This document shows positions 4,070-59,024 of a stretch of 64,000 nt of DNA, in pieces. A program made the position numbers and the translations under genes. Within the stretch, counting starts at the first letter, position 1; each line of letters begins with the position of its first letter. Source of the stretch: a virus; IMG/VR virus record IMGVR_UViG_3300028558_000001, positions 32,001-96,000 of that record; one strand, 5' to 3'. The notes beneath the pieces were generated by a model. The model saw nothing but the letters and a program-made list of their open reading frames with translations. It made no database searches and was not told the DNA's origin.

Positions 4070-4078
4070 TACGGAATA

Positions 4079-4106
4079 AGAGGGAAGGAAATCACTCCTT
4101 CCCTCT
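4079..4106 (+). terminator. Hairpin after the repeat-protein gene (no U-tail; terminator or stability hairpin)
   Basis: agagggaagga-aatcac-tccttccctct. Confidence 0.45.
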
Positions 4107-4283
4107 GCCCCTTGCAATAATTTCTATGAAAGGAATTTCATGATGAGCAAGGAATTTATGGGAATTGAGATTTTAAATGCCTTGAAAGCCATTACTGAAT
4201 TAATTTTTGGTAGTGGCTTTCTTTTACCTTGTTTTCTATGATTGCATATGCTAGATCATATGTGATTATACAAACCAAGTTAT

Positions 4284-19707: not shown

Positions 19708-20714
19708 TGAAGCACTTATCATTTCCATCTATTGAACAGTTTCGTAATGTAGTAAAGTCTGTTTCTGATCGTACATATCATAATGGACATGTTCGTAAGC
19801 CAGTCATTATGTTTCGTGGTACTGTAAAGAGTCATGGAACCAATGCATCTATTGTATATGATCGAGAAGAGAATGTATTCTATGCTCAATCTCGTTCCAA
19901 TGTTCTTTCCCTAACTTCTGATAATGCTGGTTTCTGTCAGTATTTTGAGACTAATAGGGAATTTTTTGAGACGTGGTTAAGAAACACTGTGTCGGATGGG
20001 GAACGCTATTACTCTATCTATGGTGAATGGTGTGGTGGAAACATTCAGAAGGGTGTTGCTATCTCAGGTCTTCCTAAGATGTTTCTTATTTTCGCTCTTA
20101 GACTATCTAATTTAGATGAGGATAACAATCCAGTTTCTAACTGGTATTTTGATAATCTTGAAGTCCCAAAGAATGAAATTGGTTGTTATTCAATCGCTTC
20201 ATTTGGAACCTATGAGATTGCCATTGACTTTAACAATCCTGAACTATCTCAGAATCAGTTAGTAGAGTGGACAGAAGGTGTAGAAGAAGTCTGTCCAATT
20301 GGTAAGTTCTTTGGTAATGAAGGTGTTGGTGAAGGAATCGTTTATCATCCAGTGAGTGCCGATATTCCTAATTTTCATCTTTCAGAACTATTTTTCAAGG
20401 TAAAGGGTGAAAAGCACTCTGTTTCAAAGGTGAAGACCCTTGCGGCAGTTGACGTAGAAGTTATTAATTCTATTAATGAATTAGTTGCCTCTCTTGCTAC
20501 TGACAATCGCTTTAACCAAGGAATTCAGGTTCTAACGGAACGTGGCATTGACGTAAATGACTCCAAGAACACCAGAGACTTTATTACATGGGTCAAGGAC
20601 GATGTTATCAAGGAAGATCGGGATACAATCCTTGTTTCTGGCCTTGACTTCGGCAAGGTAATTGGTAATATCACGTCAATGGCCGGTAAGTGGTTTAATA
20701 GTCGGCCAATTTGA
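19707..20714 (+). CDS. RNA ligase, Rnl2 family
   Basis: Motif I TVKSHGTN, AQSR, YGEWCG, EGIV, FKVK. Confidence 0.88.
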   Translation: MKHLSFPSIEQFRNVVKSVSDRTYHNGHVRKPVIMFRGTVKSHGTNASIVYDREENVFYAQSRSNVLSLTSDNAGFCQYFETNREFFETWLRNTVSDGERYYSIYGEWCGGNIQKGVAISGLPKMFLIFALRLSNLDEDNNPVSNWYFDNLEVPKNEIGCYSIASFGTYEIAIDFNNPELSQNQLVEWTEGVEEVCPIGKFFGNEGVGEGIVYHPVSADIPNFHLSELFFKVKGEKHSVSKVKTLAAVDVEVINSINELVASLATDNRFNQGIQVLTERGIDVNDSKNTRDFITWVKDDVIKEDRDTILVSGLDFGKVIGNITSMAGKWFNSRPI

Positions 20715-26144: not shown

Positions 26145-26172
26145 TTGTTAAATAGTGGCAAAGGAGAGAGAA

Positions 26173-26328
26173 ATGAAACATATTAAAAATCCTATTGCCA
26201 AAGACCTTCGTACTCCGAAGTACCGACTCAGGGTCGTGAAGGACAAGAAATCATATGACCGCAAGGCACAGAAAAGGGAGGATCAAAAATCCTCCCTTTC
26301 TGACGTTTATTATCCTGCAATAGTGTAA
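26173..26328 (+). CDS. ArfA-like (alternative ribosome-rescue factor-like) 51-aa basic protein
   Basis: aaggagagagaaATG; KNPIAKDLRTPKYRLRVVKDKKSYDRK versus E. coli ArfA [29 protein letters not shown]; missing from the ORF track. Confidence 0.6.
   Translation: MKHIKNPIAKDLRTPKYRLRVVKDKKSYDRKAQKREDQKSSLSDVYYPAIV
26273..26299. terminator. Hairpin between convergent units, lying inside the ArfA-like ORF
   Basis: aaagggaggat-caaaa-atcctcccttt. Confidence 0.65.
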
Positions 26329-26717
26329 CTGATTTCTTCTCTTGAGAATTTCTTGCGACCGTCATTTGGTGAGACTTTCGTAAGCTTCCCTGCTTTCACC
26401 ATTTTTGAAAGAACAGGTGAAAGACTGTTCTTAACCACCTTCGTTTCCTGCATGATCTGATCGAAATTACAGGCTTTCATCTTCTGAATAGCATGGAGAA
26501 TTTTCTTCTCCGCCGTATCGAGGATGATTGGTTTTTCTTTTTCTGGCTTCACCATAGAAACAACATTGTCGGTGTTGTCCTTCTCTATGGTCATAGTGAA
26601 CTCAATCTTCTTCAATATGCCAAGGTCTTCAAGGGCTGCTAGAGCGCCCGTTACCTTGGCTTGGTTCTTGAGGGAAAGATTGTTAATGTCCACAACTCCA
26701 TGATATTTCCAAGCCAT
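26310..26717 (-). CDS. Protein with C-terminal winged-HTH domain (putative regulator)
   Basis: ggagg RBS; EKKILHAI..QIMQET.V.KNSLSPVLSKMVKAGKL..Y. Confidence 0.65.
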   Translation of the reverse strand: MAWKYHGVVDINNLSLKNQAKVTGALAALEDLGILKKIEFTMTIEKDNTDNVVSMVKPEKEKPIILDTAEKKILHAIQKMKACNFDQIMQETKVVKNSLSPVLSKMVKAGKLTKVSPNDGRKKFSREEISYTIAG

Positions 26718-26748
26718 ATGAACCTCCATCATGTACTAACGATTCGGG

Positions 26749-58954: not shown

Positions 58955-58983
58955 TAAGAATAGTATTATAGCAAAGAATACTC

Positions 58984-59024
58984 GTCCTGCCAAGTAGAAA
59001 TATTTGGCAGGATTTGTCTTTTTT
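58984..59024 (+). terminator. Rho-independent terminator
   Basis: gtcctgccaagta-GAAA-tatttggcaggat followed by ttgtctttttt. Confidence 0.75.

Follow-up and report, generated by a model that had tools for sequence, protein, structure and literature searches.

A 51-codon open reading frame (ORF) in the genome of an uncultivated phage contains a strong hairpin shortly before its stop codon. The locus raises two linked questions. Is the product a ribosome-rescue peptide related to ArfA of Escherichia coli, and is the hairpin placed there so that translation starts from a non-stop mRNA that yields the peptide, as with arfA? We find that the best joint explanation is probably a real gene of the ArfA lineage with a predicted rescue mechanism, and a hairpin that serves as a two-way terminator.

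Genomic setting of the ORF

The window, a stretch of 64,000 nucleotides, comprises bases 32001-96000 of an IMG/VR record that is complete, with terminal repeats, at 176,660 bp. The phage genome has 37% G+C and 24 tRNA genes. No tmRNA gene was found in the whole phage genome, nor any gene with an RF-1 domain. Judged by sequence comparison, the phage is a distant, uncultivated member of the T4-like group. Its large terminase is ~50% identical to the nearest terminases, which belong to Sinorhizobium phiM12-type phages, cyanophages, and others. No close phage relatives were found via the gene convergent with the ORF, and a megablast search of the region against cultured phages was also empty. Two ARAGORN predictions outside the window, both among the 24 tRNA genes, are a phage tRNA with the anticodon CUA, which would read the amber stop (G000:C1:130875-130950, minus strand), and a tRNA-like gene whose anticodon loop is odd (137467-137543).

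The ORF extends on the plus strand from an ATG at 26173 to a TAA at 26326-26328 (26173..26328; 51 codons and the stop; product P0001). It lies where a sequence-only reading of this DNA had located it, and the ribosome-binding site that this reading described is also in place: a Shine-Dalgarno sequence, AAGGAG, can be read at 26161..26166, 6 nt before the ATG. The same reading had proposed a late promoter on the basis of a TTAAATA box upstream. Such a box can be read at 26148..26154 on the plus strand, but it is weak evidence for a promoter. The motif [ACGT]TTAAATA has 49 occurrences in this genome, whose G+C content is 37%, and the box differs from the NATAAATA form. We rejected the late promoter because the motif is too common. 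A promoter scan listed no sigma-70-like site directly upstream of the ORF, and the gene may simply be co-transcribed with the plus-strand genes that precede it.

The gene is present in a single copy in the phage genome and closes a plus-strand block. Its 3' end shares 19 nt with that of a convergent gene on the minus strand (26310..26732; 140 aa), whose product weakly matches a MarR-like winged-helix family (Pfam MarR_2, E 1.6e-4, which does not reach the cut-off). This convergent gene is, in turn, the last of a minus-strand block in which the genes for the large and small terminases (TerL and TerS) lie.

Distribution and annotation of the family

P0001 had been described as unannotated. This does not hold, as the exact product is already in the protein collection with a precomputed hit to DUF7230 (PF23876.2). 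Against version 1 of the DUF7230 model (PF23876), P0001 scores 25.0 bits (E 2.1e-5) and just misses the curated cut-off of 27 bits; among PHROGs, it matches phrog_20887 (E 1e-6). These are its best-scoring families, and neither has an assigned function. An NCBIfam search with P0001 gave no match. In the literature searched, we found no mention of DUF7230 and no record of its link to ArfA.

The family is large and mostly phage-borne. An exhaustive profile search of 1.84 billion proteins recovered 960 cluster representatives (E <= 0.001). When the best 150 of these 960 are considered, 59 match DUF7230, one matches ArfA, and 90 match nothing. We detected relatives on 286 IMG/VR viral contigs, at 26 bacterial genome loci, and in 87 cultured-phage records, including those of Acinetobacter T4-like phages, the Sinorhizobium phages phiM12, M7, and M19, and the Ralstonia jumbo phage RsoM2USA. 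Across the close homologues of P0001 (n = 33), the stretch N6-Y17, together with R20 and V21, is invariant. On the strength of these homologues, we regard the ORF as a real phage gene.

Chromosomal members occur in SAR11 and SAR86. A SAR11 copy (L020, 2992-3105, from a Pelagibacteraceae MAG) lies between genes for a response regulator and a PfkB kinase, with thiE, dapB, nth, and dnaJ close by; a SAR86 copy (L011, 3001-3132, from a single-cell genome) lies downstream of ubiE, ubiB, and tatC. Because the clade is chromosomal in SAR11 and SAR86 among housekeeping genes, the phage copies look like borrowed host rescue factors.

Relationship to ArfA

Direct searches do not connect P0001 with ArfA. 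With E <= 10 allowed, the Pfam ArfA model (PF03889; cut-off 25.5 bits) matched neither P0001 nor anything else in the complete phage genome. BLASTP of P0001 against E. coli ArfA returned no alignment, and the family profile matched no chain among PDB sequences. P0001 is also short and basic, and these observations would fit a resemblance that arose by convergence among short Lys/Arg-rich peptides, with P0001 serving an unrelated role such as generic nucleic-acid binding.

Profile-profile comparison argues for homology. We used hhalign to compare 79 family sequences that lack GKG with a set of ArfA sequences (42 enterobacterial, 8 diverse), with bridging sequences excluded from both sides, and obtained Prob 95.5, E 1.5e-8, and a score of 47. 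A second hhalign comparison (alignments A1 and A3) gave Prob 80.2 and E 1.4e-5, and placed P0001 residues 4-36 on ArfA residues 12-47 with one 3-residue gap, at GKG. Column shuffles of the same composition scored 8.5 +/- 1.8 (n = 100; maximum 15.3) and the reversed block scored 10.5, while the true block scored 36.5. Since these controls lie far below the 36.5-47 of the real comparisons, the ArfA signal is not one of composition. Class-level sampling for canonical ArfA yielded copies in only 7 of 301 and 3 of 300 genomes, so the ArfA alignment is dominated by enterobacteria and the 8 diverse genes.

Single-profile searches in the opposite direction also lead to ArfA. Over the six frames of the E. 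coli K-12 chromosome, the DUF7230 model has a sole hit, and this is inside arfA. Its score of 12.6 bits is weak for a genome-wide search, yet arfA was the gene named beforehand. Furthermore, intermediate sequences exist. Four Pelagibacteraceae ORFs (L018, L020, L022, and L025) and a viral one (L078) score 26-33 bits on Pfam ArfA, above its curated cut-off, and read N.[IV]AKDLRTPKY[RK].R[IV]V..KKGKGSF.RK, a pattern in which the ArfA hallmark comes after the family core. Other alpha- and gammaproteobacterial genes that pass the ArfA model read RNP[VA]A..L....[FY]R.RVVK.KKGK, and so connect the E. coli form with the clade.

Thus, by four independent lines of sequence evidence, P0001 is a divergent member of the ArfA lineage, within a GKG-less clade that Pfam files as DUF7230. 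Convergence is largely refuted, and we consider it very improbable. The likeness to ArfA that was first noticed by eye is a real homology, as seen in the profile-profile scores, the shuffled controls, and the bridging relatives. The profile check that had been proposed for it gave a divided answer: the Pfam ArfA model itself finds nothing, whereas profile-profile comparison and bridging sequences do show similarity. The caveat that GKG is missing was also correct. Its absence takes the form of a clean 3-residue deletion, and sister sequences retain GKG.

Conserved residues and inferred mode of action

In E. coli, ArfA residues 21-30 lie in the ribosomal A site, where Pro23 packs on A1492 and A1493, and residues 31-48 fill the mRNA tunnel (PMC5378476). 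ArfA cut at residue 47 stays active, while ArfA cut after residue 40 is inactive, and a hydrophobic patch (L19/L24/F25) holds Trp319 of RF2 (PMC5378476). A KH pair near the tunnel entry (K44-H45) is common to ArfA and BrfA (PMC8012679).

The conserved core of P0001 comprises residues 4-33 (IKNPIAKDLRTPKYRLRVVKDKKSYDRKAQ; 26182..26271, plus strand). It aligns to E. coli ArfA 12-44, with the 3-residue gap at GKG, and corresponds to the A-site mid-region and the mRNA-tunnel tail of ArfA (region assignment from PMC5378476). Like ArfA (YhdL; PF03889), which is an RF2-dependent rescue factor, P0001 is a small basic peptide. The two match without gaps over N.I...L..P.[FY]R.RV.K.K and then at SY.RK, and have in common the Pro23 equivalent and the basic tunnel segment. 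P0001 retains equivalents of ArfA N14, I16, L20, P23, F25 (as Tyr), R26, R28, and V29, and also of K31, K33, S38, Y39, R41, and K42. The A-site mid-region (Pro23, F25-R26-x-R28-V29) is present as P15, Y17, R18, R20, and V21, and three of these (P15, Y17, and R20) are >= 90% conserved in the best 150 of the 960 cluster representatives. Residue 47 of ArfA aligns with residue 36 of P0001.

The differences from ArfA are equally clear. In addition to failing the Pfam model, P0001 has an N-terminus that is 8 residues shorter. Its version of the KKGKGSY.RK motif is KDKK-SYDRK, in which the flanking KK and SY.RK are retained and GKG is deleted. The KH pair is absent, with Q33-K34 in its place, although several relatives have Y.RK.KH at equal spacing. 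The RF2-contact patch is also not retained: ArfA L19/L24/F25 correspond to D11/K16/Y17 in P0001, and D11 and K16 are invariant in close relatives. With L19 and L24 replaced by an invariant Asp and Lys, dependence on RF2 cannot be assumed.

From the retained residues, binding of P0001 to the vacant tunnel and the A site can be soundly inferred. On a ribosome that has stalled at the 3' terminus of a truncated mRNA, the basic segment V22-R35 would thread into the vacant mRNA tunnel. N6-V21, the invariant N-terminal portion with the equivalent of ArfA Pro23, would occupy the A site and help a host class-I release factor to cut the nascent chain free. Ribosomes would in this way become available again at a time when mRNA is being destroyed, be it by the phage or by a host defence. 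The contact of P0001 with the release factor may differ from that of E. coli ArfA.

A peptide that fills the tunnel and the A site need not rescue the ribosome. P0001 might instead act as a blocker or mimic to the benefit of the phage, for example by keeping tmRNA-SmpB or host ArfA/ArfB off stalled ribosomes, or by shutting down host ribosomes. This would account for the retention of the tunnel-binding half alongside the change of the RF2-contact residues L19 and L24 to invariant Asp and Lys. It would also suit the N-terminal core (NPIAKDLRTPKY), which is more rigidly conserved than in canonical ArfA and suggests a precise, possibly different, contact. However, a self-inhibitor is hard to explain in the streamlined genomes of SAR11 and SAR86, where the clade is chromosomal among housekeeping genes, and the bridging members shade gradually into canonical ArfA. 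We therefore consider a blocking role improbable, and favor a rescue peptide of the ArfA lineage.

The hairpin within the ORF

The hairpin lies at 26273..26299 (extended stem 26269-26302), within codons 34-43 of the plus-strand ORF. It has 11 G+C-rich base pairs and a 5-nt loop (AAAGGGAGGAT / CAAAA / ATCCTCCCTTT), and ends 27 nt (9 codons) before the stop of the ORF. The position given for it in the sequence-only reading is exact, and the structure is stronger than chance. It folds at -20.2 kcal/mol on the plus strand (z = -6.0; none of 200 shuffles was as good) and at -21.3 kcal/mol on the minus strand. By strength it ranks in the top five of the 36-nt hairpins of the 64-kb window, and it is one of two below -19 past position 20000. 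Two other very strong hairpins (each -20 kcal/mol) were observed in the window. One, at 58983-59018, is followed by a T-run and has the look of a classic terminator; the other, at 4073-4108, has a G-rich stem (AGAGGGAAGGA) similar in style to that of the 26273 hairpin.

The surroundings of the hairpin are those of a terminator. It stands 10 nt downstream of the stop codon of the convergent gene, which is where a terminator for that gene would be expected, as had been cautioned from the outset. Its tails are UUUUCUGU on the minus strand and UUUCUGAC on the plus strand, the T-run being better on the minus strand. With an A-run and a T-run on its flanks, the hairpin reads as a two-way intrinsic terminator. 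The terminator scan did not list the 26273-26299 hairpin, since the T-run is paired into the stem, and an Rfam search of the region matched no family. Taken together, the hairpin looks like a two-way terminator at the junction between the plus-strand block and the minus-strand terminase block.

Beyond the hairpin, the ORF continues through the final two bases of codon 43 and codons 44-51 (DVYYPAIV; 26300..26325, plus strand). This tail is unconserved and partly hydrophobic, and the tails of relatives are unrelated to it in sequence and length. Its last 16 nt and the stop codon overlap the 3' end of the convergent gene.

Is the gene built to yield a non-stop message?

A terminator inside the ORF means that plus-strand transcripts ending there have no stop codon. 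A transcript terminated in this way would give a peptide of ~43-44 residues that contains the entire conserved part. The in-ORF terminator might have been selected for regulation, in the manner of arfA and brfA, with most plus-strand transcripts stopping at the hairpin and the peptide translated from a non-stop mRNA. Under such a design, the peptide would be SsrA-tagged and destroyed while host trans-translation works, and would accumulate only when tmRNA is saturated or disabled; phage-induced mRNA decay or attack by an RNA-cleaving defence could be the triggers.

The layout at this locus lends itself to this idea. The hairpin is very stable and starts one codon past the conserved core. A transcript end 7-9 nt past the G+C stem corresponds to ~43-44 residues, or approximately ArfA residue 55 by alignment. 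In E. coli arfA, the hairpin spans codons 51-67, and the 3' fragment annotated as derived from arfA begins in codon 55, where the message is cut. Both genes have a stable in-ORF hairpin just past the functional part, and the tail behind it is unconserved and partly hydrophobic; that of P0001 resembles the destabilising tail of full-length ArfA (PMC8012679). BrfA of Bacillus subtilis is likewise an RF2-dependent rescue peptide made from a non-stop mRNA, with an intrinsic terminator before the stop (PMC8012679). The placement of the terminator ahead of the stop codon in its gene equals that in the window, although BrfA is, according to the same review, unrelated to ArfA in sequence and evolution and has another N-terminal binding mode (PMC8012679). 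The same logic is thus found in two unrelated rescue genes, and here the phage has no tmRNA of its own.

The wider family, however, provides evidence against a selected design. Among 82 distinct family loci, a strong in-ORF hairpin (<= -12 kcal/mol) is present at one, that of the window, and the family-wide version of the non-stop design was accordingly rejected for the sampled loci. Near-stop hairpins are not commoner in family ORFs (2 of 82 loci) than in control ORFs of the same loci (59 of 440). SAR11 copies end directly after the basic segment, and Acinetobacter phage copies retain an ordinary stop at the terminator edge. In contrast to arfA, this gene is phage-borne and its hairpin, which the relatives do not conserve, doubles as the terminator of the convergent gene. 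Termination of that gene fully explains the hairpin, given its position 10 nt past the stop and the better T-run on the minus strand. An open tail of 18 codons has approximately a one in four chance of arising without selection, and close phage relatives in which the layout could be compared were not found.

On balance, we consider a selected non-stop design possible but unlikely. The plain terminator reading is at least as good as an arfA-type design, and the in-ORF terminator may be incidental. We are somewhat doubtful of the fuller proposal, in which the peptide comes from a terminator-truncated, stop-less message and survives only when tmRNA is overwhelmed, possibly with a different release-factor contact. 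If it were true, a built-in sensor would free a phage rescue factor exactly when mRNA is shredded, either by host shut-off or by an RNA-cleaving defence.

Other arrangements at the 3' ends of family genes were observed. In two IMG/VR contigs (L069 and L097), no stop codon interrupts the ArfA-like ORF ahead of a tRNA-Arg gene, and the ORF extends 39 nt into that gene, so that tRNA processing would remove its stop codon. A link between ORF ends and tRNA genes was rejected as a family pattern, as the ORF reaches into a tRNA at only 2 of 81 distinct loci. In Acinetobacter phage AB-Navy1, an intrinsic terminator annotated by the depositors (L124:1308-1324) falls within the last codons of a homologous 41-aa gene, whose stop codon lies within the T-run, at the base of the stem. 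The layout in AB-Navy71 is alike, with the loop alone changed.

Implications for the ArfA lineage

Phage ArfA genes are already known by annotation from two papers, with function predicted only (PMC12753301, PMC8953757). Gp30 of pelagiphage HTVC027P, which has a direct match to PF03889, was annotated as ArfA and is transcribed early and again late (PMC12753301); g10 of Citromicrobium phage RXM was simply called ArfA (PMC8953757). Both are ArfA-family peptides of marine alphaproteobacterial phages, and are likened to P0001 here by published annotation alone.

The link between DUF7230 and ArfA, which spans SAR11, SAR86, and many phages, is more valuable than the in-ORF terminator of the window. 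It suggests a working function for a large family (960 clusters, the majority in phages, with members in SAR11 and SAR86, which are among the most abundant marine bacteria). A review restricts the occurrence of ArfA to some beta- and gammaproteobacteria (PMC8012679). With the bridging sequences, the lineage extends beyond this range, to alphaproteobacteria and many phages. If phages bring a rescue factor of their own, ribosome recycling would be limiting during infection, or would be a target in the conflict with RNA-cleaving defences. With its altered RF2-contact residues, the clade is also naturally suited to asking how a release factor is activated without a stop codon.

Finally, some members of the family carry no gene annotation in their GenBank records. 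These include the homologues in Acinetobacter phage AB-Navy71 (L126:701-826) and in RsoM2USA (L127:701-823). The RsoM2USA copy has both KKGKGSF and KH, and a tRNA-like hairpin (GGTTCGAATCC) lies downstream of it.
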